A stretch of 33,542 bases of DNA, from contig CAJBVG010000182.1 of the NCBI GenBank assembly GCA_903958995.1, positions 1 through 33,542 on the forward strand. The letters run 5' to 3'. Shown here in pieces: positions 8,866 through 25,917 of this stretch. Source of the stretch: an uncultured bacterium. GTDB taxonomy: Bacteria > Bacteroidota > Bacteroidia > Sphingobacteriales > Sphingobacteriaceae. The translations under genes were made by a program, and so were the position numbers. Every line of letters begins with the position of its first letter. Position 1 is the stretch's first letter. Under the pieces are notes generated by a model, which worked only from the letters and a program-made list of their open reading frames with translations, was not told where the DNA came from and searched no databases.

Positions 8866-8870
8866 TTGAA

Positions 8871-9205: not shown

Positions 9206-9210
9206 GTTAA

Positions 9211-10377
9211 TTATAGCACCAGTTTCTTCATCACCACTTCTTCCCCATTCATAATTTGAATGATGTGGATTCCGCTAGAAAGGTTGTTGGTATTGATGTT
9301 TACCGATTGGTATCCTTCTACTAAGTTTACTTGTTGTGAAGCGATTGTTCTTCCGCTTAAATCTGTTACACGAATTGAAGTAGATGTTGCTGATGGTGAA
9401 TAAATATTCAAATCGATATTACCTGCTTCTGTATTTGAATTAACCGAAGTTAAAGACAATTTACCAGTCATGTTTACTGCAACTGGTGCAAACGTTTCCG
9501 AAGCTCCGTTGAAATCTACTTGTGTTAAACGGTAGTAAGATGTACCTTTTAAAGGAGTAGCATCTACTACATTGTATGAATTAATTTCTCTGCTATTTCC
9601 AGCACCTTTTACTTCCGATACTAATTCAAAATTTTCTCCATCTGCCGAACGCTCGATGATAAATTTATCATTGTTAATTTCTGTAGCCGTTACCCAATTC
9701 AATTTTACTTTCTCTGAGATTTCATCTGCAGTGAATTTTATAAGGGAGATTGGAAGTGTACCACTCCAAGTAATTGAAATATCATCTAATGCTATTCCAT
9801 CTCTACTTCCAGATCCTGAAATTTCAGTGTAATTCCATCTTAAGTAAACTGTACTTGAACTATTATCTATAGCTGAAATATCTATATTGCTATAATTTGT
9901 AGATGTTCCTTCAGCTATTATTCCAGATTCATATGTGCCACCTGCAACAGCTGTAAATCCAGATGTTGCAGATGTTGTGCTATACTCCAAATTAAAGGAA
10001 TTACTTCTGCCTTGTTCTCTAACTTTTGTAACATTATAACTAATTTTAAAACTTGTTCCTAAAAAAGTATGACCAATTGCAAGAACAATTGAGCTTGGAA
10101 CGAAAGCTGAACCGCTACCTAACAATCCTATATTGCTTGTAAAATTGTAATTTCCCCCAGTTGTACTGGATGAAGTCCCTGTTGCCATAGTACCATCAAA
10201 AGTCGAAGCTTGATTATAAGAACCCCAACCAGTCGGATATGTTGTGCCAGCAGCTCCAGGAGTAGTATTAAAATTTTGAGAGTATGGAGAACTTATAGGC
10301 AATGTTAATGTTGTTTGAGCATTTACCCAACCTACAGTTGCGGTTATAATCGTTAATAGTGTAAAAATTTTCTTCAT
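9211..10377 (-). CDS. Secreted T9SS substrate: jelly-roll/MAM-like N-domain, FN3-like domain, Por_Secre_tail C-terminal domain
   Basis: Signal peptide MKKIFTLLTIITATVGWVNAQ. FN3-like module (KLNWVTATEINNDKFIIERSADGENFE...YYRLTQVDFNG). T9SS C-terminal domain (IRVTDLSGRTI...GIHIIQIMNGEEVVMKKLVL). Start set at ATG 10377. Confidence 0.85.
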   Translation of the reverse strand: MKKIFTLLTIITATVGWVNAQTTLTLPISSPYSQNFNTTPGAAGTTYPTGWGSYNQASTFDGTMATGTSSSTTGGNYNFTSNIGLLGSGSAFVPSSIVLAIGHTFLGTSFKISYNVTKVREQGRSNSFNLEYSTTSATSGFTAVAGGTYESGIIAEGTSTNYSNIDISAIDNSSSTVYLRWNYTEISGSGSRDGIALDDISITWSGTLPISLIKFTADEISEKVKLNWVTATEINNDKFIIERSADGENFELVSEVKGAGNSREINSYNVVDATPLKGTSYYRLTQVDFNGASETFAPVAVNMTGKLSLTSVNSNTEAGNIDLNIYSPSATSTSIRVTDLSGRTIASQQVNLVEGYQSVNINTNNLSSGIHIIQIMNGEEVVMKKLVL

Positions 10378-10423
10378 ATGGGTATTTTTTAGAGAGATTA
10401 CATTTAGTTTAAAAATCAATATA

Positions 10424-10431
10424 CAAATATA
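10424..10431 (-). promoter_or_regulatory. Candidate -7 box (TATATTTG on the minus strand)
   Basis: Matches TAnnTTTG, 46 nt upstream of ATG 10377. Confidence 0.3.
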
Positions 10432-10487
10432 AAGTCCTGAAATGCAAGGGGTGTTAGGAAAATGTTAATAAAATGTGAAAATATACA

Positions 10488-10528
10488 TCCCGATAGCTAT
10501 CGGGAGCGTAAATCCCGCATAAGCGGGA
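10488..10528. repeat. Two GC-rich mini-palindromes (TCCCGATAGCTATCGGGA; TCCCGC-ataa-GCGGGA)
   Basis: The first (10488-10505) is a near-identical copy of TCCCGATATCTATCGGGA at 8942-8959. Confidence 0.8.
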
Positions 10529-10534
10529 CAAGTA

Positions 10535-10601
10535 GTGCAGATGCGAAGATGTGCAGATGTGCAAATTGAATCTGCACATTTGCATATTTACGCATTTGCA
10601 C
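10535..10601. repeat. Inverted pair of 8-nt tandem arrays (GYGMARAT x 4, tga, ATYTRCRY x 4)
   Basis: gtgcagat|gcgaagat|gtgcagat|gtgcaaat|tga|atctgcac|atttgcat|atttacgc|atttgcac. Same word family as 6227-6314. It ends 6 nt before the stop of the 10608 gene. Confidence 0.9.
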
Positions 10602-10607
10602 ATCTAT

Positions 10608-11093
10608 TTAGCGTAGGCGATCGGCCGATTTCACCAATTCTTCGTCCTTTTTGATGGCTCTGGCGGCTAGGGCGGTTAAAACAACGGCAATACTTGGGAA
10701 TACCACGGCCAAGCCGGTTACAATGTTCATTACTCCTTCGGCATTTACCGTTTTATAGGCAGAAGTAAGCATGGTAGTAATTAATGCGAAAATGAGCATA
10801 ATCATTACTCGTGCTAAGCGTAATTGCTTTTTGCGGTTATTAAATTGAAATACGGTAACCAATAAGCCTAAACCAATGGCTAAAGTCATTACACTTTTGG
10901 CATAATTAGGTTTCGCTAATACATATTCGTTAGTGGTTGCTTCTTTTTCAAATCGACCTTGAATAGTCAATTTTACTTCTTTAATGGTAGCATCCGGTTG
11001 TTTCTCCACGAAAGTATAAATCGGAAAGAAATACATCATCGCTAAAGCTACCGATGCGAGGAATAAGTAGATGGTTTGGATTCTTTGAATCAT
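10608..11093 (-). CDS. DUF4293-like integral membrane protein
   Basis: 161 aa, starting MIQRIQTIYLFLASVALAMMYFFPIY, with four predicted TM helices. Confidence 0.7.
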   Translation of the reverse strand: MIQRIQTIYLFLASVALAMMYFFPIYTFVEKQPDATIKEVKLTIQGRFEKEATTNEYVLAKPNYAKSVMTLAIGLGLLVTVFQFNNRKKQLRLARVMIMLIFALITTMLTSAYKTVNAEGVMNIVTGLAVVFPSIAVVLTALAARAIKKDEELVKSADRLR

Positions 11094-11096
11094 CTT

Positions 11097-11187
11097 GAGT
11101 TATGAGTTATGAATTGTGAGTTGTGAGTTGAATTATGAATTGTAAATTTTAACTCACAACTCATAATTCACAATTTACAATTAGTAT
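11097..11187. repeat. 7-nt phase-locked array (13 units) with inverted arms (GAGTTRT... / ...CTCAYAA)
   Basis: gagttat|gagttat|gaattgt|gagttgt|gagttga|attatga|attgtaa|attttaa|ctcacaa|ctcataa|ttcacaa|tttacaa|ttagtat. It fills the whole spacer between the start at 11093 and the eno stop at 11188. Confidence 0.95.
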
Positions 11188-12477
<1,290 letters not shown>

Positions 12478-12482
12478 CTAGC

Positions 12483-12610
12483 TAAATTTTAAATTGTAAA
12501 TTTTAAATTGTAATTTATTGTATTAACATATTAATCTAAGTTGTAAGTTATTTCATTAACATATTATCCTATTAACATATTAACATATTATCCTATTAAC
12601 ATATTATCCA
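12483..12610. repeat. Compound array: TAAATTK x 5 (7 nt), AAGTTRT x 2, then ATTAACAT/ATTATCCT x 7 (8 nt)
   Basis: 7-nt units run from 12483 to 12517. There is an ATTAACAT|ATTAATCT pair at 12522-12537. 8-nt units run from 12555 to 12610, and the last unit contains the carA stop (12604-12606). Confidence 0.9.
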
Positions 12611-13701
12611 AGCAAACGAACGAAGTCATCAAATAAGTAACGTGAATCATGTGGGCCTGGAGATGATTCTGGGTGATACTGTACCGAGAATGCTTTCTTG
12701 CCTTTAACACGAATTCCTTCAATACTTTGATCGTTCAAATTCACGTGAGTGATTTCCACTTTATCCGATGCATGAACATCTTCTGGGATAACGCCAAAGC
12801 CGTGATTTTGTGATGTAATCTCGCAATGATTTTGAATAATATTTTTTACCGGGTGGTTTAATCCGCGGTGACCGTTAAACATTTTATGTGTGCGGATGTC
12901 GTTTGCTAAAGCCAATAATTGGTGACCTAAACAAATGCCGAATAAAGGTTGATCATCTGCCAACACTTGTTTTACTGTTTCAATAGCGTAAGGCATTGCC
13001 GATGGATCGCCAGGACCGTTAGAAATGAAGTATCCATTCGGTTTCCAAGCTTTCATTTCTTCGTAAGTAGTTTTCGCTGGGAATACTTTTACAAATACAT
13101 CGCGTTCTGCGAAACATCTTAATATATTTTTCTTTACCCCTAAGTCTAATACAGCAACACGGTAGGTTGCATTTTCATCACCAAAAAAGTAAGGTTCTTT
13201 TGTACTTACTTCCGATGATAATTCTAAACCATCCATAGATGGTACAGAAGCTAATCTTTTCTTCAACTCTTCTACATCTAAAATTTCAGAAGAGATGATG
13301 GCATTCATCGCACCTTTATCGCGAATGTGGCGAACCAATTGGCGAGTATCGATATCGGAGATACCTACGATATTATCATTTAAAAAATAATCTTGAATAG
13401 ATTCATCGGCCATTTTGCGAGAATAGTTCATGTTGAAATTCTTACAAACCAAACCGGCAATTTTTATGCTATCCGATTCTACTTCTTCATGGCTAATTCC
13501 ATAATTCCCGATGTGGGCATTGGTGGTCACCATAATTTGTCCGAAGTAAGAAGGGTCAGTAAAAATCTCTTGGTAGCCTGTCATTCCGGTGTTAAAACAG
13601 ATCTCGCCAGTAGTGGTTCCAATTTTACCTGCCGATTTACCGTGAAATACGGTTCCGTCTATTAAAACTAATACTGCTGGGATCTTTGCAATTTCTGCCA
13701 T
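12604..13701 (-). CDS. carA: Carbamoyl-phosphate synthase small (glutaminase) subunit
   Basis: The GICLGHQ active-site Cys motif and the HPE(S) motif, with full-length similarity to CarA. Confidence 0.95.
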   Translation of the reverse strand: MAEIAKIPAVLVLIDGTVFHGKSAGKIGTTTGEICFNTGMTGYQEIFTDPSYFGQIMVTTNAHIGNYGISHEEVESDSIKIAGLVCKNFNMNYSRKMADESIQDYFLNDNIVGISDIDTRQLVRHIRDKGAMNAIISSEILDVEELKKRLASVPSMDGLELSSEVSTKEPYFFGDENATYRVAVLDLGVKKNILRCFAERDVFVKVFPAKTTYEEMKAWKPNGYFISNGPGDPSAMPYAIETVKQVLADDQPLFGICLGHQLLALANDIRTHKMFNGHRGLNHPVKNIIQNHCEITSQNHGFGVIPEDVHASDKVEITHVNLNDQSIEGIRVKGKKAFSVQYHPESSPGPHDSRYLFDDFVRLLG

Positions 13702-13721
13702 TTTTAATTCTTTTTAAGCAT

Positions 13722-13750
13722 AAAAAAAGCCTTGTAAACTAATACAAAGC
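13722..13750 (-). promoter_or_regulatory. Terminator-like hairpin plus U7 in the carA 5' leader (candidate attenuator)
   Basis: On the minus strand: GCTTTGTA-ttagtt-TACAAGGC followed by TTTTTTT, ending 20 nt before the carA ATG. The stem pairs better on the minus strand (G-U) than on the plus strand (C-A mismatch). No upstream minus-strand gene exists for it to terminate, because panB is divergent. Confidence 0.4.
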
Positions 13751-13912
13751 CTCAGGATTCATTGAAAACGAGCATTTTTGAAGAGAATTCTTCTCAACCC
13801 TTGTAACAAAGATTGTATTGATGTACATTTTCATTGCTTGCAAAGGTAAGAAAAATCAGAGAATCGTGTAAGCATTTTTTGAAAGATTGAAAATTTAGTG
13901 GACTTTTGTAAC

Positions 13913-14728
13913 ATGTCAGTACACAAAGAAGTAAAAAGAGTGACCACGCATGTGATTCAGGAAATGAAAAACAGTGGGGAAAAAATCGCGATGCTTACCG
14001 CATACGATTATTCTACAGCCCTAATTTTAGATGAAGCAGGGATTGATATTTTACTTGTAGGCGATTCGGCCTCGAATGTGATGGCTGGACATGAAACCAC
14101 CCTTCCTATTACACTTGATCAAATGATTTACCATGCCGCTTCGGTAGTGCGTGGTGTGAGTAGAGCATTGGTGGTGGTTGATTTACCTTTCGGTTCTTAC
14201 CAAGGAAATTCTAAAGAAGCATTACAGTCCTCTATTCGTATTATGAAAGAATCGGGCGGACATGCCGTGAAATTAGAAGGTGGCGCAGAAGTGCGTGAAT
14301 CAGTAGAACGTATTATTTCAGCTGGTGTACCAGTAATGGGACATTTGGGTTTAACTCCACAATCTATCTATAAATTCGGAACCTATACCGTTCGTGCTAA
14401 AGAAGAAGCAGAAGCTAATAAACTTATTGAAGATGCATTAGTGCTTCAAGAAGCTGGTTGTTTTGCTTTAGTACTCGAAAAGATTCCAGCAGAATTAGCG
14501 AAGAAAGTTACCGAGCAATTAAGCATCCCTGTAATAGGTATTGGCGCAGGCCCTCATGTAGATGGACAAGTACTTGTAGTAAATGATTTACTTGGCATTA
14601 CAAAAGGTTTCAAACCTCGTTTCTTACGTCAGTATTTGAATTTATACGAAGCAATTAATGGCGCCGTGAAATCGTATATCGGTGATGTGAAGTCGAAGGA
14701 TTTTCCGAATGAGAAAGAACAGTATTAA
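13913..14728 (+). CDS. panB: 3-methyl-2-oxobutanoate hydroxymethyltransferase
   Basis: [10 protein letters not shown]...LVGDS...VKLEGG motifs. Start set at the first ATG (13913); the tracked ORF begins at an upstream GTG. Confidence 0.93.
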
Positions 14729-14795
14729 TCGAATTTGCGAATTTGCGAACTTGCAAATTTGCGAAGGGTCGAATTGTAGAAGGGTCGAATTGTAG
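14729..14795. repeat. 8-nt phase-locked array exactly filling the stop-to-stop spacer of a convergent gene pair
   Basis: tcgaattt|gcgaattt|gcgaactt|gcaaattt|gcgaaggg|tcgaattg|tagaaggg|tcgaattg|tag. It includes a 16-nt duplication and belongs to the NNNGCGAA family seen at 5085-5148. Confidence 0.95.
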
Positions 14796-16844
14796 TTAAT
14801 TAGAATTTTGACTGATTCTTATCTTTATCACTTCTGAATTGTTAAGTTTCAAGAAATATAATCCATTCGGATAAGACTGAATATTAATTCTGGTAGTATT
14901 ATTTTCAATAGCAATATTTTGAAGTGCTCGGCCAGTTAAATCATATAGTTTTGCTTGGGTAGGTATGCCTGAGTTGTTCTTTATTGTGATAACATCACTT
15001 GCTGGATTGGGGAATATTGAAAAGGCAGATTGCTTTTCAGTATTTATCCCAAGATCATTAATTATGAAGATATTCATGCTGTCTACAGTCCTATTGCCTG
15101 CTGCATCTTCAGCCCAAACGGTTAGCCTATACTCGCCATCTACATAAAGTTTTGTATTGAAATTTTCACTTTCATCACTTAATGTAATCGTATCGTCGCC
15201 ATTGGAATTGGTAAGCACATGATAAAAAATACGATCGTTATAATTGCCTGTCGACATACAAGTTGCATCTCTTGCATACATCGTATTAATAATGTCCTGT
15301 ATATAAGGTCCACTAAAATAGGTGTCGTTAAACATATTGAAATTGAAAGACTCTTTTGCGTAAAGTATAGAGTCTGGCTTACTTGCTGTCGAAATTTTAA
15401 AGCCAGTTTTATGAACATCCACTTGCCAAAAGGTATTGATTTGGTCATACACTTTTGAAACAATATCTACTTTACCAAACACCACATCGCCTGGAAAATA
15501 ATCCTTAGTTAATTCATCTCTAAACGCAAATTTGAAACCAGGAAGAACTTCTTCAAAAACAGGAGCTGTAGTATCTACAAAATTCTCCATGTAGTATAAT
15601 GGGTTATCGAAAGTCCACCAGGAACCGTTCCATTGTGAACCCGCATCAACTATACGAGCAAAATGACAATGAACAAAACCCGTTACGGGGAAATCGACTA
15701 ATTGCCCAATCACTTCCCCTTCTAGAACGGAATCACCAACCCCAACGGGAATAAGGTTTGCATCGAGGTGTGCATACAAATAACCTTGAGAAGAATCGGA
15801 TGTATTTTGATTTGCAATGGCTATTCTCCAATGGTATGCACCACTCGTGGTGAGTATTGCTTTAATAAAACCTTTTTTTACGGAATGAACATTTTGCAGA
15901 TTTACGCCAAACAAATCTACCCCTGGATGCAAATAAGTATCTCCTTGAGAATACTCTTGAATTTCGTTGTATGAATTACCGATTGCTTGATAACTCGAAT
16001 CATTTGTAAAATCAACTGGATTCAAAAAAGATTCGTTATCGAGTGTATTAAACTTTTCGTTTTTATGCTTTATAGATTTTGCTTGAGCTGCAATAATTCT
16101 AGGATAGCTTACACTCTGTAATGTGTTCCAATCTGAAAAGGTACGAGTACTTATTAAGTTGAATATGTATTCTGTATTACTTGATTCCTTTTCAGAAATA
16201 TAAAACACATCGTTCATTTTCTTCACTTCAAAAATGGATTTCGATGAATTGTAAATTTCTTTAATCTCATTTTTAGCTAAAGCATATATTTTATTTTTAG
16301 CAATGAAATAAGGAGTATTATTTTTTTGAATAACATCGACTACTAATGAAGACGAATGCTCGCTAAGACCATTGGAATGCATCGTATTATCAACCGTATT
16401 CACATAAGACAAGGTTCCATTATTATGCACCACAAATAAAGCTGAAGCAGGATAAGCTTGTTCTTCAAAAGAACTTAAATTTAAAACAACCACTACTCCC
16501 CTATTATAAAATGCTGCGAAATTTTTATCCTCCGATAATTTAATATTTATAGTTTGATTGTATTTTTTATGAAATACTTCTTTCCCATTTTCAGTATATC
16601 CATAAAGTTGAGAAATACCATTCTCATAATTTCCATCTACACTTAAAAACCCATTTGCTGTTTCAAACAATGCATTGCCTTTAAATTTTTTATATTGAAA
16701 ATCTATTTCAAATGCATTATTAACCATACCTACAGCATAGTCGAAATTCGATTCTGGAAGCACAATATGCCCAGCTTTATTAAGCTTTTGAGCAGAAAGC
16801 AGAAGAGGGAATATGCAACAGAATAAGGCTACTAATTTTTTCAT
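14796..16844 (-). CDS. Secreted M23/LytM-family metallopeptidase-domain protein with a T9SS C-terminal domain
   Basis: Signal peptide MKKLVALFCCIFPLLLSAQ. The HxxxD motif (LHPGVD) and HxH motif (VHCHF) are in M23 order. C-terminal domain FSIFPNPASDVITIKN...GLYFLKLNNSEVIKIRI. Confidence 0.75.
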   Translation of the reverse strand: MKKLVALFCCIFPLLLSAQKLNKAGHIVLPESNFDYAVGMVNNAFEIDFQYKKFKGNALFETANGFLSVDGNYENGISQLYGYTENGKEVFHKKYNQTINIKLSEDKNFAAFYNRGVVVVLNLSSFEEQAYPASALFVVHNNGTLSYVNTVDNTMHSNGLSEHSSSLVVDVIQKNNTPYFIAKNKIYALAKNEIKEIYNSSKSIFEVKKMNDVFYISEKESSNTEYIFNLISTRTFSDWNTLQSVSYPRIIAAQAKSIKHKNEKFNTLDNESFLNPVDFTNDSSYQAIGNSYNEIQEYSQGDTYLHPGVDLFGVNLQNVHSVKKGFIKAILTTSGAYHWRIAIANQNTSDSSQGYLYAHLDANLIPVGVGDSVLEGEVIGQLVDFPVTGFVHCHFARIVDAGSQWNGSWWTFDNPLYYMENFVDTTAPVFEEVLPGFKFAFRDELTKDYFPGDVVFGKVDIVSKVYDQINTFWQVDVHKTGFKISTASKPDSILYAKESFNFNMFNDTYFSGPYIQDIINTMYARDATCMSTGNYNDRIFYHVLTNSNGDDTITLSDESENFNTKLYVDGEYRLTVWAEDAAGNRTVDSMNIFIINDLGINTEKQSAFSIFPNPASDVITIKNNSGIPTQAKLYDLTGRALQNIAIENNTTRINIQSYPNGLYFLKLNNSEVIKIRISQNSN

Positions 16845-16863
16845 TCTTCAAGATAATATAAAA

Positions 16864-17010
16864 AATTAGGAATTAGGAATTAGGAATTAGGAATTTGCAC
16901 TATAGAAAAAGGACTATGGACATCGGACAAGGGACAATGGACAAAGTAAGATATCCAGTCACCAGTCACTAGTCACCAGTTACCGCTAAATAGTCACCAG
17001 TCACCATAAA
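16864..17010. repeat. 21-unit heptamer array in a single phase with drifting words (AATTAGG x 4, then ACWNNGG x 5, then CCAGTCA-type x 7)
   Basis: I read the units one by one from 16864 to 17010 without any phase slip. Confidence 0.95.
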
Positions 17011-17022
17011 TTTGTACATTTG
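17007..17022 (+). promoter_or_regulatory. Two adjacent TAnnTTTG boxes (TAAATTTG, TACATTTG) upstream of the RluA-family gene
   Basis: The second box ends 4 nt before ATG 17027, the same geometry as at truA. Confidence 0.4.
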
Positions 17023-17026
17023 CGCT

Positions 17027-17692
17027 ATGAACATATTCTACGAGGATAATCACCTCATTGCTATAAACAAACCAGCGGGTACTCTTGTGCAGGTGGATAA
17101 TACTGGAGATACATCTTTAGAGATTTTGGTAAAGGATTACATCAAGGTACAATACAACAAACCGGGTGAAGTGTTTTTAGGGGTAATACATCGCATCGAT
17201 CGTCCCGTTAGTGGATTGGTATTGATGGCGAGAACGAGTAAAGCTTTAGAGCGTGTTAACAAATCGTTTAAAGATCGTGAAGTTCAGAAAACCTATTTAG
17301 CAGTAGTTAGAAATAAACCTGCGTTAGAAGAAGGCACACTTGTTCATTGGTTAACAAGAGATACAGTGAAAGGCGTTACCAAAGCACATAACAAAGAAGT
17401 CAACGGTTCCCAACGTGCCGAACTTAGCTATAAATTATTGTCGGAAATAAATGGTTTTTATCTATTAGAAATAAAACCGATAACAGGAAGAACGCATCAA
17501 ATTCGCGTACAACTTTCTAGCATGAATTGCCCCATTGTAGGTGATAATAAATATGGATATCCTAGAGCCAATAAAGATCGTAGCATTTGCTTGCATTCTT
17601 ACAAACTAGCTTTCAACCATCCCGTTACCAAAGAACGCATGGAACTACAAGCGGATTTACCGGAAGATGCTTTTTGGCAGAAATTTAGGTAA
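17027..17692 (+). CDS. RluA-family pseudouridine synthase (no S4 domain)
   Basis: The HRIDRPVSGLVL catalytic-Asp motif and ...GRTHQIRVQL. Start set at the first ATG (17027); the tracked ORF begins at TTG. Confidence 0.9.
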   Translation: MNIFYEDNHLIAINKPAGTLVQVDNTGDTSLEILVKDYIKVQYNKPGEVFLGVIHRIDRPVSGLVLMARTSKALERVNKSFKDREVQKTYLAVVRNKPALEEGTLVHWLTRDTVKGVTKAHNKEVNGSQRAELSYKLLSEINGFYLLEIKPITGRTHQIRVQLSSMNCPIVGDNKYGYPRANKDRSICLHSYKLAFNHPVTKERMELQADLPEDAFWQKFR

Positions 17693-17765
17693 CTGGTGAC
17701 TGGTAGCTGGTAACTGGTAACTGATAAACAAATATTTCGAGTTACGAACTACGAGTTACGAGGTA
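17693..17765. repeat. 7-nt phase-locked array exactly filling a stop-to-stop spacer (CTGGTRA x 5, then TTACGAG-type x 4)
   Basis: ctggtga|ctggtag|ctggtaa|ctggtaa|ctgataa|acaaata|tttcgag|ttacgaa|ctacgag|ttacgag|gta. The first words are the reverse complement of the array upstream of the same gene. Confidence 0.95.
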
Positions 17766-18965
17766 CTACTGAGAGAATTCCGTACTCAACTTAAACCTCA
17801 CAATTCTACCATTCCCTGTATCGCAGATGTATAATGTGCTTCCGAAATAGGCAACAGCAGTTGGTCTGCGGAATTGTTTCGGACCAGAACCTGTACCACC
17901 AAATGAAACGTTAATATTTTTCTTTGATGAATAGCCTGCTGGTGGTGGAACTCCTTCTAAACCGGTTAAGGTAAATAAGTACACCGAATCTTTTGTAGCA
18001 TCGGTTACGAAAATATAATTACTTCCATCGCCTGCAATAGTTATCCCTCTTGGTTCTGTAAACTTATTTGGAGTGTACATAAATCCATCTGCTTTTGTGG
18101 TGTCTTGTCCGGCTAAGCTAGTATTTAATGAATATGATGAACCAAATTCTGAAGAAACAAAGCTGATGTATTGAGTTTTTATTGATGTACTACTCGATAA
18201 AGAAGTGAAAAGAAAATCGCCTCCTTGTTTTACAATATTACTTTGTGGTGCTTTCGCTAAAGTTGAAATGGCAAATGGTGATTTAAAATAATCGGAAATC
18301 AATCCTTGCTCTGTGCTTACACTTACGTTACTTACGAACTTATCGTTTTGGTTAAATACTAAAACTGAATTATCAGGACCGCCAATTTGCGATGAGCTGT
18401 TCGATGGACCAGAACGTGTGATGTAATAACTATTATCGGCCATCATGCTGATTCCATTGATGTGTACAGCAGAATCGGAAGTGGTGAACGATGTTTTAAA
18501 ATAGAAAGGATGAACAACTGTTTTTGAGATGATCGCATTGTTTAATCCGTAACCATTACTCGTAATTAATTTTAAACGATACAAGGCATCGAGTGTATAA
18601 TTCTTACCATTGATGACAGTATCTTTTGTCCCAAGTACTAATAATTCCAAGCTTCTATCCATGGCAATGGCTTTTGCATTTGGAATGCTCTTCTCTCCTA
18701 CTTTTCTGCCCGACTGATCGAATGAAATAACTTTACCTGCATTCTTATCGGCAATGTAAATTAACTCGTCATAACCAATCGTAATGTCGACTGGTGAAGC
18801 AGTAATTTTAATATCAGGAAGAATTGGTACGAATGCGATTGGTTTTTCATCGTAGTTTGGAACGTCGATGAAACCTAAATTAGTTTTATCACCAAATGGT
18901 TTTTCACAAGAGGATAATACACTTGATAGAATAACTAATCCGAATAAATATTTTCTAATCATCAT
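17766..18965 (-). CDS. Lipoprotein with C-terminal NHL-like beta-propeller repeats
   Basis: Lipobox LSSVLSSC. Repeats PRGITIAGDGSNYIFVTDATKDSVYLF and RPTAVAYFGSTLYICDTGNGRIVRF. The start lies 1 nt from the upstream stop codon. Confidence 0.75.
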   Translation of the reverse strand: MMIRKYLFGLVILSSVLSSCEKPFGDKTNLGFIDVPNYDEKPIAFVPILPDIKITASPVDITIGYDELIYIADKNAGKVISFDQSGRKVGEKSIPNAKAIAMDRSLELLVLGTKDTVINGKNYTLDALYRLKLITSNGYGLNNAIISKTVVHPFYFKTSFTTSDSAVHINGISMMADNSYYITRSGPSNSSSQIGGPDNSVLVFNQNDKFVSNVSVSTEQGLISDYFKSPFAISTLAKAPQSNIVKQGGDFLFTSLSSSTSIKTQYISFVSSEFGSSYSLNTSLAGQDTTKADGFMYTPNKFTEPRGITIAGDGSNYIFVTDATKDSVYLFTLTGLEGVPPPAGYSSKKNINVSFGGTGSGPKQFRRPTAVAYFGSTLYICDTGNGRIVRFKLSTEFSQ

Positions 18966-18966
18966 C

Positions 18967-19968
18967 TTATCTTGCTTCTTTATTTAATGAAAACTGTAAT
19001 CCTATTTGTTGCGCGAATCCTAAGTAAGGATGAGGATCTGCAGCGTAATCAATTCTTAAGGGGTGGCGACCAGCACGTGTGCGTAACCCTAATCCAAAGG
19101 TTGGCATCGTAGCATCATTCACACCAATTTTATACCCGGCTCTAACCGAAAATATATTCATCCAAGCGTACTCAACACCTAAGCGTATATTTTCTGAGTT
19201 ATCATTCGGGTGATGAAGTTCTGCAGCAACAAGAATACTATTGCGTGCATCTTTATAAGGCACCATCGACAAACCCATTTTAAATAAGGTTGGTGCTGCG
19301 TAATTATTAATGTCGGGATTGTTACTACTAAACGTGGTGAGTGATTTTGTTACTCCATCAATTTTTGTATTCACTCCGAAATTATTCACGAATACGGCGA
19401 AGCGTAAATCTTTAAAATCTGTTTTATATAAAAATCCTAAATCAACTACACCAGAGTGAACCGTGTATTGATCAATACCTTCGTAAACATATTTTAAACT
19501 TACTCCGTAGCTAAAATAATCAGATAATATTTTTGCATAACTCGCGCCAATGGCTAAGTTTTGAGTGTAGAAATATTGACCAGTACCACCTGGTTGAAAT
19601 TCTGTACGCACTTCCATAGCATCCGAACGAAACGATTGCATACTTAAACTCCAAACACTGTATTTTTTTGTAGGGATAATAGCGCTGATGTATGCATTCT
19701 GCATATCAGAAAAATACAATGTATTCGACAATGCAAAAGTTAATTGCTTTACATCAACCATTGTTGCGGGGTTGTTACTCGCCGAAAAACCATCTCCAGG
19801 TGTTGCTACTCCCGTACCGGCCATTGCCGTTAAACGAGGACTATTACTTAGCTTCAAAAAAGTAAACGCTGCTGTACCTGCACGCTGCCCACCCAAATTC
19901 GGAATCAACTGCGCATTTGCAACACCAGCACCAAGCAATATTAAAATCGTTACTATATATCTTTTCAT
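18967..19968 (-). CDS. PorV/PorQ-family outer-membrane beta-barrel (T9SS-associated, FadL-like)
   Basis: Signal peptide MKRYIVTILILLGAGVANAQ, then GGQRAGTAAFTFLKLSNSPRLTAMAGTGVA...SNNPATM, which matches my recollection of the family N-terminal signature. Alternating beta-strand pattern with an aromatic-rich C-terminus. Start set at ATG 19968. Confidence 0.7.
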   Translation of the reverse strand: MKRYIVTILILLGAGVANAQLIPNLGGQRAGTAAFTFLKLSNSPRLTAMAGTGVATPGDGFSASNNPATMVDVKQLTFALSNTLYFSDMQNAYISAIIPTKKYSVWSLSMQSFRSDAMEVRTEFQPGGTGQYFYTQNLAIGASYAKILSDYFSYGVSLKYVYEGIDQYTVHSGVVDLGFLYKTDFKDLRFAVFVNNFGVNTKIDGVTKSLTTFSSNNPDINNYAAPTLFKMGLSMVPYKDARNSILVAAELHHPNDNSENIRLGVEYAWMNIFSVRAGYKIGVNDATMPTFGLGLRTRAGRHPLRIDYAADPHPYLGFAQQIGLQFSLNKEAR

Positions 19969-19981
19969 TAAAATAGATTGT

Positions 19982-20098
19982 TGTATTAAGTACAATGTAT
20001 TATGTATTATGTATTATTATTTTTCATTGTACATTGTACTTAATACATTGTACAGAACATTAACATATTATCCCATTAACATATTAACATATTAATTA
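19982..20098. repeat. Compound array: 7-nt words (TGTATTA x 4 / ACATTGT x 3, partly inverted), then 8-nt ATTAACAT/ATTATCCC x 5
   Basis: 7-nt units run from 19982 to 20058 and 8-nt units from 20059 to 20098. The last unit, attaatta, contains the stop codon of the 20096 gene. GTACAATGTATTA (19990-20002) pairs with TAATACATTGTAC (20041-20053). Confidence 0.9.
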
Positions 20099-22906
20099 AA
20101 ACTGCCACGTTAACCCCAACATCATTTGTCTCGGTGTTAAATACCTCGCCGGATTAAATGGAGGTGCTCCATTATCTTGTGGATCCGGATAGTTTGGATC
20201 ACGGTATCCATTTGGTAATTGATCACCTAACTCATATGCTTTCCCGGTAACAGGATTAATAATAGCTGCATTTTTATTGTTAAATAAATTCTTCACTTCG
20301 AAACTAACACTAAGCGCTTGTCCTCTTTTTATTGGGAAGTCGCGTGTGATTCTGAAATCTGTATTCCACCATGCACTACCAATTTCAGAGAACGGATTTT
20401 TATCATCCGGTTCATAAATTGGGCGACCTGTTGGAGCAGTCCCATTTTGATAATACGGAGTGTAACGTAATCCTGATTTATACGTTGAGGTAAAGAATAC
20501 TCTGAAATTATTTAAACTACGACCGGCAATTTTAAATGAAGTGTCGGGTTTGAAAATTACTAATAATTTTAAATCTAATGGGCGATCCCAAGCTAAGTAC
20601 TGCTCTACTGTTGGCGATACTTGTCCGGTTTGCAAAATTTGCAATTGCGATTCTTGTGCAGAGTTTGATTTTCCTGTAGCAATTTGGTAAGCCGCACTGA
20701 AGGTTGCTGATAAATATTTTTTAATTCTTCTGTTCAAGGTTACTTCAAATCCACGGATACGAGCGTAATCTTGGTTGATGCTAAAGTTCTTTTCTACGAA
20801 ACGACCTGTTTGATCTTTCACTACAATTTTACGACTTACGATGTAATCGAATTTATCATTATAAAAAGCAGTTGCTGTTACGGCAAAGTTCGAAGTGATT
20901 TGTGTTTTAATACCTACTTCATAAGAAACCGTTACTTCAGGATTCAAATCAGGATTACCTAAATTCGATAAGAACGATCTGTTTTGATATACTGGATCTA
21001 AACCAGCGTACACAAAACGAGGGTGAGGCAAACGACTTAAATGTCCGTAGTTGAAGTACAATACATTGTTATCTGATACAGGGAATGAAACTCTAAGTTT
21101 AGGTAATAATCTAAATTTAAAACGTCGTCCAAAAATATCGGATGAATTACTTAAGTAGCTTTCGCGAATGGCAGCAATTACTGGAGCATTAGGGTCGGCA
21201 ACTGCATTATCAACAAACTTTCCAGGAGCCCAATAGTTTAAACGCAATCCAAGGTTTAAGATAATTCCTTTGTAGCGCATTTCATCTTGAACGTAAATAC
21301 CACCTGTTGCAGGATTCACTTTCCAAATGTCGTTACTCTGACCAATACTGCTTGAAGCTGTTGTTGTAGAATCGTTGATAATAATTGGAGCACCAATCCA
21401 AGGACGAGTAACATCTACCCATTGGTATTCTTGTTCCTTATGTTCTATACCGAATGAAATAAAGTTAGCTTTATTCGGAGTGTAATTGAATTTTACTTTG
21501 AAAGTATTTTCAATAGCATAGTGATCATGCCATAAAGTAGAAACCCCACCGTTGTTGTATAAACCCGGACCAGGATTCACAAAGATGACAGAGTCGCCAG
21601 CATTGTAAATGGTAACAGGATCAGATACGATTGATTGTGGATCGTAAATTTGATCGATGGTAGAAGGTCTGAACGGACGACCATTAGCATCTGCTCTTAA
21701 GTTGGTGAATAAACGAGCGAAGGAAACATCCATCGATAATTTATTGCTAAACAAATTTAAATATTGAATGATGGTTAAGTTTGATTTATGAGTATACGTA
21801 GTCGCGTTATTCATGTTCAAACTAAACAGGTATTGGTAACCTGGAGTTACTACAGCGTTGTTACCAATAATTTGTAATGAACGAGTATTTTGATTGATGT
21901 TTAAAGAAGCTTGATTAGAGATAGAAATTTTCTTACCTGGTTTAATGTTGTAAGTAACCTTCATGGTGTTCGACCATTTGTTATCTTCACGAGGAGCCCA
22001 AATAGAATCGTTGCTAGGTAATAATGTAGAATGTAATTGTTTTGCAGGAGTTTTGAAAAACTCATCGGTGAGTTCCATATTCACACTCGTAAAGAATGTT
22101 AGTTTTTTATTGGTGTATGGAATCGGACCACTAACAGAAAGACTAAGCATATCGGTATTCCATTGCGATTTATCGTTGAAGCCTAAGTTATCTCTGTAGT
22201 ACGAACCACCGAAACGATAGCGATCAGAACCTTCGCGAATACGTGTTAATACAACACCTGAAGTGCCTTCACCATATTCTGCTCCAACACCACCAGTAAT
22301 TACTTCAATGTCGTTGATGGCGTTCGCAGCAATCTCTACACCGAAACCTGTACCCGCCAATGGATCTTGTGCGTTAATACCATCCACTAAATATTGTGTT
22401 TCATAAACACGACCACCACGAATTTGTAAACCATCAGGGTTTTGAGAAACACCTGCTTGGTTAGCAACAATAGACTGAACGTCTTTCACGCTCATGTCTT
22501 TGATATCTTCTGAACTAACTTTAGTACTTGATTTACCAGATTCTAAATCGACGATGGTACGTTGACCAAGAACTTCAACCACACCAATCTCGGTGCTCAC
22601 TTCAGTCATTTGTAAATTCAATGTTGTTACAGCCCCTGATGTAACTTTTACGCCGTTGTATATAATTTCTTTATACCCTAAGTACACTACTTTTAACGAG
22701 TAGTCACCAGGTTTAATATTATTCAACGTGAAATTTCCACTTAAATCTGTAGGTGCTGCGAAATAAGTACCAACAACGGTAACCGTAGCACCAATAATGG
22801 TTTCCTTGGTTTTCTTATCGGTGATCTTACCTTTAATGCTTCCTGTTTGTGCGAAAGCAGAAAGTGTAAAAAGAAGAATCGATAGTGATAGTAAAAGTTT
22901 TTTCAT
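20096..22906 (-). CDS. TonB-dependent-receptor-like outer-membrane protein with an N-terminal CarboxypepD_reg domain
   Basis: Signal peptide, then GSIKGKITDKKTKETIIGATVTV...GNFTLNNIKPGDYSLKVVYLGY (CarboxypepD_reg), a plug region (...GLQIRGGR...VDGI...), a long barrel and a terminal ...LGLTWQF. Confidence 0.88.
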   Translation of the reverse strand: MKKLLLSLSILLFTLSAFAQTGSIKGKITDKKTKETIIGATVTVVGTYFAAPTDLSGNFTLNNIKPGDYSLKVVYLGYKEIIYNGVKVTSGAVTTLNLQMTEVSTEIGVVEVLGQRTIVDLESGKSSTKVSSEDIKDMSVKDVQSIVANQAGVSQNPDGLQIRGGRVYETQYLVDGINAQDPLAGTGFGVEIAANAINDIEVITGGVGAEYGEGTSGVVLTRIREGSDRYRFGGSYYRDNLGFNDKSQWNTDMLSLSVSGPIPYTNKKLTFFTSVNMELTDEFFKTPAKQLHSTLLPSNDSIWAPREDNKWSNTMKVTYNIKPGKKISISNQASLNINQNTRSLQIIGNNAVVTPGYQYLFSLNMNNATTYTHKSNLTIIQYLNLFSNKLSMDVSFARLFTNLRADANGRPFRPSTIDQIYDPQSIVSDPVTIYNAGDSVIFVNPGPGLYNNGGVSTLWHDHYAIENTFKVKFNYTPNKANFISFGIEHKEQEYQWVDVTRPWIGAPIIINDSTTTASSSIGQSNDIWKVNPATGGIYVQDEMRYKGIILNLGLRLNYWAPGKFVDNAVADPNAPVIAAIRESYLSNSSDIFGRRFKFRLLPKLRVSFPVSDNNVLYFNYGHLSRLPHPRFVYAGLDPVYQNRSFLSNLGNPDLNPEVTVSYEVGIKTQITSNFAVTATAFYNDKFDYIVSRKIVVKDQTGRFVEKNFSINQDYARIRGFEVTLNRRIKKYLSATFSAAYQIATGKSNSAQESQLQILQTGQVSPTVEQYLAWDRPLDLKLLVIFKPDTSFKIAGRSLNNFRVFFTSTYKSGLRYTPYYQNGTAPTGRPIYEPDDKNPFSEIGSAWWNTDFRITRDFPIKRGQALSVSFEVKNLFNNKNAAIINPVTGKAYELGDQLPNGYRDPNYPDPQDNGAPPFNPARYLTPRQMMLGLTWQF

Positions 22907-22924
22907 TTAAATTTTATTAATTCA

Positions 22925-22988
22925 TCTCTGTGTCTCTGTGCCTCTGTGATTAGGAATACTTAAACACAGAGACACAATGACACAGTTT
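22925..22988. repeat. Inverted pair of 8-nt arrays (YCTCTGTG x 3, 16-nt spacer, CACARNNN x 3)
   Basis: tctctgtg|tctctgtg|cctctgtg|attaggaatacttaaa|cacagaga|cacaatga|cacagttt. The spacer is exactly two units long, so phase is kept. TGTGTCTCTGTG pairs with CACAGAGACACA. Confidence 0.9.
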
Positions 22989-22993
22989 GAAAT

Positions 22994-23365
22994 TCAATTA
23001 ATACATCTTGTTATTCCATCTTTTAATAATGGGACATTAAAATTAATTAACAAACCAATTTTTTTATTTGATAATTTCAAATAGGACAAAAGCTGTGCTT
23101 TGTGAACAGGTAAAACTAATTCAACAGCTTTTAATTCTATTAATACTTGCTCATTGACAAGCACATCAATAAAAAAACATTTTTCTAATTCAACTCCTTT
23201 GTAAACAACCTTTACTGGAGCATTCTCTCTACATTCAAATCCTTTAAGTCTCAACTCTTGAATCAAACATTTTTGATATACTGATTCTAAAAGTCCAGGT
23301 CCTAAATTTTTATGAACCTCAAAACTTGCTGACACTACAGCTTTTGTAATTTCATTATAATCCAT
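22994..23365 (-). CDS. GxxExxY protein (PD-(D/E)XK-like small protein family)
   Basis: 123 aa with the eponymous motif GPGLLESVY, followed by the ...DVLVNEQVLIELKAV... core. Confidence 0.85.
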   Translation of the reverse strand: MDYNEITKAVVSASFEVHKNLGPGLLESVYQKCLIQELRLKGFECRENAPVKVVYKGVELEKCFFIDVLVNEQVLIELKAVELVLPVHKAQLLSYLKLSNKKIGLLINFNVPLLKDGITRCIN

Positions 23366-23423
23366 CTCACTAATCCTTTCTATTTAATATTATAATCTAC
23401 AATATATCATTCATCTTAACTCA

Positions 23424-23471
23424 CCGGTCCCTGAGCCCTGCCCGCGCAGGCGGGGGAGCCGAAGGGCCCGG
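23424..23471. repeat. GC-rich hairpin (family C) carrying an internal 18-nt GC mini-hairpin
   Basis: CCGGTCCCTGAGC[CCTGCCCGCGCAGGCGGG]GGAGCCGAAGGGCCCGG. Without the bracketed part it matches GGTCCCTGAGCGGAGCCGAAGGGACC at 25970-25995. It ends 2 nt from the stop codon at 23474. Confidence 0.85.
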
Positions 23472-23473
23472 TA

Positions 23474-24991
23474 CTACCATCCGAATTCCCCTAGCAACAC
23501 CTTCTCAAAAAACTTCCTCAACTCATCTTGTTGTCCATTTGCATCGGCATCGCCTTGAAGTTTATATAAGTCGGAGCTGAAAAATATTTGATTGGTTTGG
23601 CTATTTACGTTTAATGTTTTGGCACAAAGCACTCTAGTATTCGTTACCCCATTAGCACGTTTTACTTGCCCGCGATATACCACAAATGCACTCGACTTAG
23701 GGAAGAATGGATCGATGGCATCAGAGAAAGTACTTACTTTCAATGTAGGGTAACCTACTGCATTTACAGCATCAGGAACAACTAATGAATCTAGAGGTAA
23801 GGAAGCTTTTTGGTTTGCTGCAAAAAAAGTTTGGAAACTATCTGCAGGTGTAAATTGAAATAGTGATGATGTTTTCGGGAAAGGACCAGCAGTAGAACCT
23901 TGTGCGTTATTATCAAAGTCACTTGTAATTAAAAGCTTCCCTCCGTTATTTAAATAATCTTGAAAAGTAGTTGAGCCTTCTTCGAATAACATCCCTCCTG
24001 CTGTTGCAGAACGAGAGTTATCTGAGTACATAAATACTTTATCGTATAAACCTAAAGTTAACAAGAAAGTTGGTTTCCATAATTTTGGAATGTATGCTTT
24101 ATTCTGACGATAGAAATCGTAATAATCATATGCACCATAAGCGGCAGACAATGCAGATGCATAAACCACATCAGCATTTGGAGTAGTAGAAATATTAAAA
24201 GCATCGAGTACTAATAAGTCTGATGTTTTTCTACGAAGTACAAATGGGTTTAATGAATCCATCTCACTTTCGGTACCTGATAAGTCTTTCGCTTTAATAT
24301 AAATTATATTGGAAGCACCAACGACTAAGCCTGTAATTTTTCTATTTAAATTAATTGAGCTACTACCTGCATAAACCGAAGCATTTGTTAATCCATTTAC
24401 TTCTGGTTGATCAGGAACGATACTAGCAAATGAAAAGTTTTTAGAAATAGCGAACCAAGCACCATTATTTATTTTGATATAAACAGAATCTAATGTTCCT
24501 ATTCCATCTAAATCGTTTGCAGTCCAAAGTAGTGAGAACACTGAATAAACCGAATCGCCTTTGATTAAATTATCATCTAAAGAAATAGTGGGCGCTGTAT
24601 TTTTAATTGGAATTTTTAGGTACGCTGGTGTTTTATCTTTATTGCCTTCGTTGTCGATTGCACGAACATAAAAATTGATATCTGTAGTATCACTTCCATT
24701 ATTGATGCTGAAGCGAAAAACAGAATCTTGATTTTCGGTATAAGTCCAGTTAATATTATCAAAAGAAATTTCGTATCCAGTGATGTACCCATCTTTATCA
24801 TCACCAGACCATTTCATATCGACAATTGCATTTAATCGATCGGTACCTGAGCGATTAATACTCGATAAATATAGATTGGTAACTGGTTCGGAATTGGGTT
24901 TTAATTGACCTTCTTTTTCACAAGAAAGCAATACAAAGGAAAGTAGAACACAAAATAGCATTCTAGAGAAAGTTGTAGCCGTTTTTATCAT
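23474..24991 (-). CDS. Predicted lipoprotein with two N-terminal Ig/FN3-like modules; function unknown
   Basis: Lipobox VLLSC. Repeated module W(S/T)xxDxDGxxxxxxxxI(S/K)xxNxxW. I recognise no catalytic motif. Confidence 0.6.
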   Translation of the reverse strand: MIKTATTFSRMLFCVLLSFVLLSCEKEGQLKPNSEPVTNLYLSSINRSGTDRLNAIVDMKWSGDDKDGYITGYEISFDNINWTYTENQDSVFRFSINNGSDTTDINFYVRAIDNEGNKDKTPAYLKIPIKNTAPTISLDDNLIKGDSVYSVFSLLWTANDLDGIGTLDSVYIKINNGAWFAISKNFSFASIVPDQPEVNGLTNASVYAGSSSINLNRKITGLVVGASNIIYIKAKDLSGTESEMDSLNPFVLRRKTSDLLVLDAFNISTTPNADVVYASALSAAYGAYDYYDFYRQNKAYIPKLWKPTFLLTLGLYDKVFMYSDNSRSATAGGMLFEEGSTTFQDYLNNGGKLLITSDFDNNAQGSTAGPFPKTSSLFQFTPADSFQTFFAANQKASLPLDSLVVPDAVNAVGYPTLKVSTFSDAIDPFFPKSSAFVVYRGQVKRANGVTNTRVLCAKTLNVNSQTNQIFFSSDLYKLQGDADANGQQDELRKFFEKVLLGEFGW

Positions 24992-24997
24992 AAAAAT

Positions 24998-25021: not shown

Positions 25022-25060
25022 TTATGGAGAAAAGAAAAAAATAAGCATTTAAAAAGACGA

Positions 25061-25906: not shown

Positions 25907-25917
25907 AAGTTAAATAT

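Follow-up and report, generated by a model that had tools for sequence, protein, structure and literature searches.

How does the region between two genes come to be filled with seven-nucleotide units, and does the period itself matter? The question is raised by contig CAJBVG010000182.1 (assembly GCA_903958995.1) of an uncultured bacterium of the Sphingobacteriaceae, of which a stretch of 33,542 nt was analysed (hereafter the window), and in particular by a spacer of 182 nt between the start codons of two divergent genes. To its left lies the gene of an M23-like peptidase carrying the sorting tail of the type IX secretion system (T9SS) (14796-16844, minus strand) and to its right that of an RluA-type pseudouridine synthase (17027-17692, plus strand, ATG at 17027). 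An earlier note, written from the sequence, had named both flanking genes and listed 21 heptamers at 16864-17010; Pfam assignment bears out the former, and the latter match exactly. On balance, the spacer is probably best described as three adjacent heptanucleotide arrays of the kind known as long simple sequence repeats (LSSR) or short tandemly repeated repetitive sequences (STRR), placed between back-to-back promoters of the Bacteroidota type, each with its -7 box 4 nt from the start codon. Slipped-strand mispairing, which adds or removes units, and recombination, which replaces entire cassettes, would together have shaped it.

The -7 consensus of Bacteroidota promoters is TAnnTTTG, and this is the basis on which -7 boxes are called here. 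Two sets of loci, denoted by L numbers, serve for comparison. A query with the RluA protein yielded 80 loci from species-representative genomes, the nearest of which are freshwater Sphingobacteriales metagenome-assembled genomes (MAGs) with RluA amino-acid identities of 98% (L005), 93% (L001), 92% (L002), 85% (L003) and 83% (L004), and an exact lookup of the same protein in public assemblies yielded seven strain contigs that are 97-99.9% identical to the window. On the M23 side, the spacer opens with the gene start and a promoter-proximal segment (16842-16863, minus strand, ATG at 16844-16842) that holds a -7-like box, TTATCTTG (CAAGATAA on the plus strand; 16849-16856), with two mismatches to TAnnTTTG and a 4-nt gap, AAGA, before the ATG. 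L005 and the strain contigs conserve this segment, and a similar arrangement, TTACCTTG-N4-ATG, is found in L001. Next to it stands array 1, 4.6 perfect copies of AATTAGG (16864-16895; 100% matches in Tandem Repeats Finder, TRF), which runs into AATTTGCAC (16892-16900), a single word of the 8-mer family ATTTGCAC. In the heptamer listing AATTTGCAC was unit 5 plus the beginning of unit 6; its family builds arrays elsewhere in the window (TRF, 6227-6312 and 10535-10603), and it marks the point at which the haplotypes of the window and L005 diverge. Array 2 (16899-16954) consists of decayed heptamers with the consensus A-C-A-A-N-G-G, from ACTATAG to the closing run of ACAAGGG, ACAATGG, ACAAAGT and AAGATAT, of which TRF detects only the core (16925-16944, 2.9 copies in the rotation GGACAAG). 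Array 3, 7.4 imperfect copies of CCAGTCA (16955-17010; TRF 16955-17006, 71% matches), leads to a pair of boxes on the plus strand (17007-17026), TAAATTTG at 17007-17014 and TACATTTG at 17015-17022, followed by CGCT and the ATG of RluA at 17027.

The second box, TACATTTG, is probably the -7 element of RluA and, if the Bacteroidota consensus is a guide, the box of the M23 gene would be that of a promoter too, so that transcription of both genes would start at or beside their start codons. The box-N4-ATG geometry of RluA recurs at truA (box 6316-6323, ATG 6328) and, with one mismatch, at two minus-strand genes starting at 25906 (box to start 25904-25918) and 10419 (10417-10431), and several genes with a -7-like box 4 nt before the start suggest that leaderless or near-leaderless mRNAs are common in this organism. 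At every such 5' case the arrays extend directly to the upstream edge of the -7 box. Across the window neither TAnnTTTG (30 against 47 expected) nor TAnnTTTG-N4-ATG (23 against 21 expected) is enriched, although individual matches do fall at true gene starts. Sigma-70 promoter and terminator scans of 16700-17900 gave nothing above shuffle expectation, as expected for a Bacteroidota genome, and no Rfam family attains its gathering score anywhere in the window. The thought that the 8-mer arrays might themselves be tandem -7 boxes was rejected: four of their words match TAnnTTTG at 5/6 positions against 3.0 expected in shuffles, and only the TGCACATT family resembles the box.

Over the 167 nt on which the statistic was computed, the self-identity of the spacer at lag 7 is 0.63, against 0.28 ± 0.033 and a maximum of 0.39 in 2000 dinucleotide shuffles (z-score 10.8), and each third of it is periodic in its own right, with lag-7 z-scores of 7.4, 5.3 and 6.6 for arrays 1, 2 and 3 and an identity of 0.59 within array 2. 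The claim of the earlier note that the whole spacer is a single 7-nt lattice does not hold, for the heptamers cover 147 of the 182 bases and TRF divides them into three arrays (16864-16895, 16925-16944 and 16955-17006). Its claim of one unbroken phase fares better on the left than on the right. Arrays 1 and 2 have in common an initial A and a GG in the last two positions (6-7). Of the seven rotations the in-phase one scores best, though by a small margin (3.57 against 3.14), and it is only here that an unbroken phase has any content. Between arrays 2 and 3 the in-phase rotation scores 1.82 and is beaten by two others (2.73 and 2.67), and the units at the junction agree at one position of seven; these two arrays merely abut. 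The two TAnnTTTG boxes with which the note ended its lattice are indeed present, but they are an 8-nt tandem pair and break the 7-nt lattice. The phase of a tandem array is arbitrary, and a phase relation between arrays of different words is therefore meaningful only where the words are alike when read in that register. The phase is unbroken because insertions and deletions remove or add whole units and because the arrays directly abut, and it is no evidence for a selected 7-nt lattice. What looked like a lattice with a drifting word is three abutting satellite arrays of different ages.

How do the arrays change? The strain contigs give a direct view. In three of them (L082, L085 and L086) the spacer does not differ from that of the window, two (L084 and L087) are one AATTAGG unit short, with three and not four (-7 nt), and one (L083) lacks two CCAGTCA units (-14 nt), a deletion that recurs in lake metagenome run X4. 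These are the sole indels in strain alignments of 3-6.6 kb in which the RluA protein is identical. L083 and L087 also carry single-nucleotide differences in array 2, and the AATTAGG copy number is four in the window, L082, L083, L085, L086 and L005. Whole-unit gain and loss between strains is what slipped-strand mispairing would be expected to produce.

Slippage-born polymorphism of this kind near promoters is also the hallmark of the simple sequence repeat (SSR) contingency loci of host-adapted pathogens, and the number of units could in principle tune the expression of the M23/T9SS-cargo gene or of RluA. Such a phase-variation switch would suit an M23 peptidase secreted through the T9SS, a typical phase-variable class, and arrays that lie directly upstream of both -7 boxes and vary in unit number among near-identical strains. 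The units of contingency loci, however, measure 1-5 nt and sit between promoter elements or within open reading frames (ORFs), where a change of one unit alters spacing or frame and switches expression, whereas here they measure 7-8 nt, occur genome-wide and lie in neither position, being upstream of the -7 boxes at 16849-16856 and 17015-17022. Owing to the periodicity, the 21-28 nt nearest the promoter read the same after a unit is lost, which argues against classical phase variation by spacing. Arrays of this type also occupy convergent spacers and those beside housekeeping genes (enolase, carA, panB, truA), which argues against a gene-specific switch. We therefore regard a switch as very doubtful.

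A second mode of change emerges from more distant comparisons. In L081 (GCA_021739865.1) the RluA protein is identical and the flanks resemble those of the window (97-99% identity), but between positions corresponding to ~16811 and 17019 this contig carries a different spacer, 97 nt long, with an 8-mer array (TGCACATN) and another -7 box, TATCTTTG. L005, which is ~91% identical to the window and collinear with it over 9209-28050, retains (AATTAGG)4-AATTTGCAC and then continues with the same 8-mer array as L081 (ATTTACGC ATATGCAC ATCTGCAC etc.) where the window has TATAGAAAAAGG. In L001 the spacer is made of unrelated arrays, 8/16-mers of TTGAACAA and 14-mers of GACGTAATACGTTG, and in L002 it has shrunk to 37 nt without any repeat. 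Array 2 is absent from L005, L081, L001 and L002. Whole array cassettes have thus been replaced between lineages by recombination. A common ancestry of the middle array of the window and the 14-mers of L001 was considered and dropped, as only the final 20 nt before the ATG align (score 25, shuffle maximum 22).

The window, L001, L005, L081 and L002 all retain the TAnnTTTG-like box-N4-ATG of RluA, although nothing upstream of it is the same. That it is kept next to 8-nt arrays or none shows that the RluA-adjacent arrays are unnecessary for that promoter and that the 7-nt period is not maintained; these arrays would then be dispensable filler upstream of a near-leaderless promoter. The alternative offered in the earlier note, a constraint on the 7-nt spacing itself, fails on the same grounds, with an 8-nt array in L005 and L081, 8/16- and 14-nt arrays in L001 and none in L002. 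The first idea of the note, in which new words are born in place by mutation and local duplication, survives in a reduced form. The non-periodic spacer of L002 counts against it, and the gain and loss of units (-7 and -14 nt) counts for it, as does a network of related words across the whole class of arrays described below. The birth of the three words from one another in one register is not supported, given that arrays 2 and 3 share no register and that the right part of the spacer has been exchanged blockwise in L005 and L081.

Exchange is not confined to this spacer. The convergent panB/M23 spacer (14729-14795) is composed of TTTGCGAA 8-mers in the window, of TATGCTAG and TATGCTGA 8-mers in L005, and of a ATGTTAAT array with a terminator hairpin in L081 and L084, and the words in the spacer at 12478-12603 differ in each of five relatives. 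The RluA site is moreover a rearrangement hotspot. In L003 the RluA gene (10001-10666, corresponding to 17027-17692 of the window) is inverted in place relative to both its neighbours, M23 and an NHL-repeat gene, and in L001 and L004 a further 2.7-3.6 kb have been inserted between the latter gene and RluA. An inversion mediated by flanking inverted arrays was contemplated; the inversion in L003 is real, but L003 lacks arrays around RluA, and the link is unsupported.

To which known system do the arrays belong? LSSRs with units of 5-11 nt (Mrázek et al. 2007, as summarised in PMC4679880 and PMC4692102) are most abundant as heptanucleotides, with polymerase slippage as the proposed generator. 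Many bacteria have more heptameric SSRs between their genes than expected, and the length and sequence of these repeats differ between close relatives (PMC4679880; PMC4692102). The likeness to the heptanucleotide class is close: head-to-tail 7-nt units beyond chance, intergenic and dispersed, in many words, and variable between relatives. The present arrays show each of these features, with 4.6, 2.9 and 7.4 head-to-tail copies, with 61 of 63 arrays intergenic and dispersed, and with copy number and sequence that vary between relatives (-7 and -14 nt; replaced or absent). They depart from the class in that octamers are nearly as common, in their extreme density, in abutting arrays that fill whole spacers, and in a conservation like that of regulatory DNA. 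The LSSR surveys do not include this uncultured freshwater Sphingobacteriales group. The target arrays are members of the known heptanucleotide LSSR/STRR class, and an unusually dense case of it, to which any function would be assigned by inference.

The STRRs of the cyanobacteria Calothrix, Nostoc and Anabaena are similar in being intergenic tandem heptamers of several word families, often less than 100 nt from promoters or start codons. The words reported for Calothrix are CCCCAGT, TTGGTCA and CAACAGT. None of the three appears in the list of array words from the window and its five nearest relatives (hereafter the clade). With a different phylum, the relatives here being Sphingobacteriales MAGs, and different words, the arrays are not STRRs in the strict sense. 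The deletion of a heptamer array upstream of recO in Nostoc left basal promoter activity intact but altered the responses to regulators (bioRxiv 10.1101/2022.06.06.494920), a result compatible with modulatory, non-essential arrays. Repeats of TAACTGA have been described in Beggiatoaceae, Cyanobacteria and a few Bacteroidetes (MacGregor 2015; PMC4679880), and in Gramella and Aequorivita more than one kind of heptamer array can share a spacer, where the spacers of close relatives are shorter and repeat-free (PMC4679880), which is the pattern seen between the window and L002. The TAACTGA word is likewise intergenic and recurs in distant phyla. In 'Maribeggiatoa', however, this one word dominates, in forward orientation and a few nt upstream of start codons (PMC4679880), whereas here dozens of words occupy all types of spacer and the target arrays lie upstream of -7 boxes; TAACTGG/TAACTGA units occur only at 17693-17727, downstream of a stop codon, and the target arrays, built of other words, do not belong to the TAACTGA family.

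The class extends throughout the lineage. Between 12 and 13 of the 20 spacers in the window carry 7- or 8-nt arrays, which occupy 992 of 3478 intergenic nt (29%) and fill nearly every spacer that lacks other conserved content, with words that include ATTAACAT, TTTGCGAA, TGCACATT, AATTCTA, TGAGTTG, TAAATTG, CGAGTTA, TGTATTA, CATTGTA and TCTCTGTG. In the 115 kb of the clade (window plus L001-L005), 40 arrays have period 7, 23 period 8, five period 9 and two period 6. The 1158 kb of other Bacteroidota loci (L006-L080) hold 67, 28, 17 and 15 arrays of these periods, so that period 7 is the commonest there too, but the density in the clade, ~0.55 arrays per kb, is ~7-fold higher. All but two of the 63 arrays of period 7 or 8 in the clade are intergenic, at a coding density of ~87%. 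Among the members are inverted 8-mer arrays in the divergent sucD/truA spacer (6227-6327), the convergent panB/M23 spacer (14729-14795) with its 8-mers throughout (CGAATTTG and related words), and TGTATTA and CATTGTA heptamer arrays followed by a ATTAACAT octamer array between a TonB-dependent receptor gene and porV (19982-20095); ATTAACAT arrays also occur at 5195-5296, 12555-12606 and 33058-33134.

At least 22 heptamer words and 16 octamer words are in use, and they are not a random collection. When nearest-neighbour Hamming distances are taken over all rotations and both strands, the mean is 1.27 for heptamers, against 1.59 ± 0.13 for composition-matched random words (none of 300 shuffles as low), and 1.125 for octamers, against 2.17 ± 0.17. 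The words thus form a network linked by single substitutions. The low distances support the view that new words form when a unit mutates and is then amplified; this holds for the class as a whole and is not specific to the target spacer.

Could the period nonetheless be selected? One can picture a gap-free lattice to which one protein binds per 7 (or 8) nt, insulating or co-regulating the two promoters; by analogy, the binder might be a ribbon-helix-helix (RHH) regulator, as for parS of pSM19035, or a single-strand-binding OB-fold or cold-shock protein. There is precedent, as the RHH protein ω/ParB of pSM19035 binds gap-free heptads of one consensus, WATCACW, and needs at least four contiguous ones, direct or inverted (PMC9499535), and for the TAACTGA repeats a CspB-type mode has been considered in which each heptamer binds one protein (PMC4679880). 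The present arrays share with the ω/ParB heptads the gap-free 7-bp units, the direct and inverted orientations and the position upstream of promoters. In addition, periods other than 7 and 8 are rare among them irrespective of the word, a given spacer keeps an array from species to species even as its words change, and retained arrays are conserved like regulatory DNA. The ω/ParB operator, however, is built of a single word, whereas no single sequence-specific binder would fit at least 22 heptamer and 16 octamer words, among which WATCACW is not used (no search was made for a cognate protein), and arrays of 8 nt are interchangeable with those of 7 nt, which leaves the resemblance an analogy only. 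At the target spacer itself the lattice is contradicted by arrays 2 and 3, which share no register, by its interruption at the 8-nt box pair, and by orthologues with 8-nt arrays (L005, L081) or none (L002). A binding lattice appears unlikely.

Not all of the spacer behaves like filler. At third codon positions the window and L005 are 82.9% identical, yet the M23-proximal segment with (AATTAGG)4 (16845-16900) is 98.2% identical between them, with one mismatch in 56 nt against 38 in the first 200 nt of M23 coding sequence. The same holds for the inverted heptamer arrays at 11094-11187 (97.9%) and for the TGTATTA/CATTGTA/ATTAACAT arrays at 19996-20095 (99%, aside from a 9-nt insertion), and the mismatch maps show that the conservation ends at gene boundaries. 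Regulatory spacers without arrays are conserved to a similar degree (13702-13897, 99%; 24992-25060, 100%). One of these, the divergent carA/panB spacer at 13702-13897, has the same length, 196 nt, in each of the five relatives and matches no Rfam family; a regulatory region, a conserved leader or an RNA not yet described is the probable identity. For the retained arrays the simplest reading of the sequence comparison would be purifying selection, with spacer-limited recombination between lineages as the alternative. The difference between 98% in the (AATTAGG)4 block and 83% at third codon positions indicates that the block is probably functional, and under purifying selection it would probably serve as upstream promoter or operator DNA of the M23/T9SS-cargo gene.

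Array and promoter can also be shared as one module. The ~60 nt upstream of truA in the window consist of an 8-mer array, the right arm of the inverted pair in the sucD/truA spacer, followed by CACATTTTCA, TATCTTTG, N4 and ATG. This module (6262-6330) is invariant in four strain contigs, and the DNA preceding RluA in L005 (8340-8408) and L081 (2945-3003) matches it at ~85-90% identity. The likeness shows that array-plus-promoter modules are shared between unrelated genes, and ectopic conversion, convergence or co-regulation may account for it. The two carriers, truA and the RluA-type gene, encode two unrelated pseudouridine synthases.

This raises the possibility that the spacer is a mosaic of imported modules, mobile cassettes of a MITE-like (miniature inverted-repeat transposable element) or promoter-borne kind, and did not grow in place. 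Besides the module shared by truA in the window and RluA in L005 and L081, the import of the L081 spacer into a window-like background, orthologous spacers that are either nearly identical or wholly replaced, and the occurrence of the same words at many loci in many genomes would all be accommodated. Yet homologous recombination anchored in the flanking genes explains replacement equally well, and the unit-level indels testify to dynamics in situ. The spacer has no terminal inverted repeats or target-site duplications; the AATTAGG word is also found at other loci, where the flanks of the arrays are heterogeneous, with a loose-end consensus agreement of 0.49-0.60 (i.e. ~0.5-0.6). The sole transposase seen is of the Y1/IS200-like type and is flanked by GC-rich palindromes resembling repetitive extragenic palindromes (REPs), not by these arrays. 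Mobile cassettes are thus an improbable source. Nor do the target arrays conform to other repeat types: they are AT-rich direct repeats without a significant fold, unlike REPs or REPINs (paired REPs), and their 7-nt units are directly adjacent, unlike the 24-48-nt repeats and unique spacers of CRISPR (clustered regularly interspaced short palindromic repeats).

A different use of the same building blocks is found at gene 3' ends. Neither the target arrays nor the arrays in their place in L005 and L001 fold significantly (z-scores from +0.8 to -1.3), whereas many stop-adjacent spacers consist of an array and its inverted complement and can form long hairpins with z-scores from -4.6 to -10. In the convergent spacer between RluA and the NHL gene (17688-17766), (CTGGTRA)5 and (CGAGTTA)4 pair as a hairpin (17693-17765, z-score -4.6), which is retained with other words in L002 (-6.5) and L084 (-5.6). 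The inverted TGAGTTG and AACTCAC arrays at 11094-11187, between co-directional genes, give a z-score of -6.3, and their counterparts give -10 in L005 and -6.7 in L003, where both arms use another word; further hairpin spacers lie at 10525-10607 (-6.4) and 22907-22993 (-8.0). Hairpins that persist while the words differ between relatives imply that the two arms change words together and that pairing is retained. Such inverted arrays might act like terminators or processing sites. A census of 45 array clusters identified 12 strong hairpins, and a mean z-score below -3 was found in 11 of 38 tandem or convergent clusters and in none of the three divergent ones, these being the only divergent cases. 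A rule that hairpins are restricted to stop-adjacent spacers was set aside: the trend is there, but three divergent cases are too few for a test.

The (CTGGTRA)5 array downstream of RluA (17693-17727) is the reverse complement of the array 3 word family, so that inverted copies of one word family flank the gene. If transcription reads through, array 3 could accordingly pair with 17693-17727 and enclose the RluA ORF, to be cut by RNase III in the manner of an rRNA intervening sequence, or the arrays could belong to a long 5' untranslated region or a small RNA. Some metatranscriptome contigs do cover array spacers, and in L003 (20063-20428) and L004 (630-992) inverted heptamer arrays enclose small genes of PF05635, the four-helix-bundle family named '23S rRNA intervening sequence protein'. 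But the conserved -7 box lies downstream of array 3, and the RluA transcript should therefore start after it; the inverted flanking pair is absent in L005, L081, L001 and L002; and the target arrays do not fold significantly by themselves and are not covered in the metatranscriptome runs, which contain scraps of this genome and nothing useful for 16845-17026. A role of this kind at the RNA level seems highly improbable. The spacers corresponding to those of the PF05635 genes are gene-free in the window, and the layout in L003 and L004 is like the stem-plus-loop-ORF of an rRNA intervening sequence. A PDDEXK_3 gene (22994-23365) beside an inverted 8-mer hairpin is absent from L005.

The word of array 1 leads beyond the lineage. 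An exact search for three AATTAGG units returned at least 120 metagenome contigs, and the 80 loci that were fetched (L092-L171) span 33-68% GC. With the telomere-like contig L093 set aside, all 85 AATTAGG arrays on them lie outside ORFs of at least 70 residues; 15 of the 85 have an inverted partner within 150 nt, and they often begin a few nt past a stop codon. The same contigs hold a further 114 period-7 and 22 period-8 arrays in 446 kb. A literature search by sequence found no paper mentioning the AATTAGG array.

Several of these observations sit uneasily with arrays generated by slippage and swapped as cassettes. A conservation of 98-99% in the retained arrays fits poorly with filler, and it could instead reflect recent recombination between lineages confined to spacers, an exchange of which L081 is an instance. 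AATTAGG copy number is three or four within the species and yet four in both species. The contrast between hairpins and direct arrays draws on three divergent spacers, and the RNA runs hold almost nothing from the target spacer. Slippage, finally, leaves unexplained both the near-exclusive use of periods 7 and 8 and the recurrence of identical words, such as (AATTAGG)n, on contigs of 33-68% GC.

A bolder proposal is that in this lineage, and perhaps far beyond it, the 7- and 8-nt arrays are not slippage debris but actively maintained modular cis-elements. The reuse of words over 33-68% GC, the regulatory-like conservation, and the construction, from the same blocks, of promoter-upstream arrays and of gene-end hairpins whose arms change words jointly are compatible with it, although we hold it to be rather unlikely. 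If true, it would imply a factor that reads or makes the period, be it a protein that covers 7-8 nt of DNA or an activity devoted to making repeats.

Whichever account is right, the restriction to periods 7 and 8, the regulatory-like conservation of some arrays and the recurrence of words across phyla raise questions that concern the entire repeat class. Heptanucleotide arrays have been on record since the STRR reports and the LSSR survey of 2007, and the present lineage is well suited to ask why the unit is seven and what the arrays do. Arrays make up nearly one third of its intergenic DNA, and the organism is abundant in many public lake metagenomes. Near-identical strains display unit indels and cassette swaps at one divergent promoter pair, sister lineages provide array-free and 8-mer versions of it, and the conserved and the replaced arrays, like the array-built hairpins, give rise to testable hypotheses. 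There is a practical side for annotation as well, in that such spacers break short-read assemblies and are not to be taken as gene-specific regulatory codes.

Some minor features of the window complete the picture. The ATTAACAT arrays at 5195-5296, 12555-12606 and 20059-20095, and one in L081 (634-680), begin no more than 3 nt from the stop codons of four genes, and in all four the mRNA strand reads AUGUUAAU, an orientation bias that is not significant by itself. At 12504-12566 heptamer and octamer words are combined into a 33-nt higher-order repeat of 1.9 copies, of which a metatranscriptome contig (run X27) spanning carA and the downstream gene has one copy and skips 12521-12553. The higher-order units are therefore polymorphic too, and this spacer appears to be transcribed. 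Two metatranscriptome contigs cross other array spacers; their direction is undefined, and DNA carry-over is possible. A spacer of 323 nt (31697-32019) contains neither arrays nor an ORF of at least 100 amino acids. GC-rich palindromes fill 8831-9210, 10490-10530, 23425-23473, 25960-26000 and 28150-28284, and another, CGACGCGATTTATCGCGTCG, flanks the gene of the Y1_Tnp (IS200-like) transposase (71-625, minus strand) in inverted copies (1-70 and 724-841), forming a perfect tandem array of 2.7 copies of 43 nt on one side. Together, the transposase and CGACGCGATTTATCGCGTCG look like a REP-associated tyrosine transposase (RAYT) with its REP elements.

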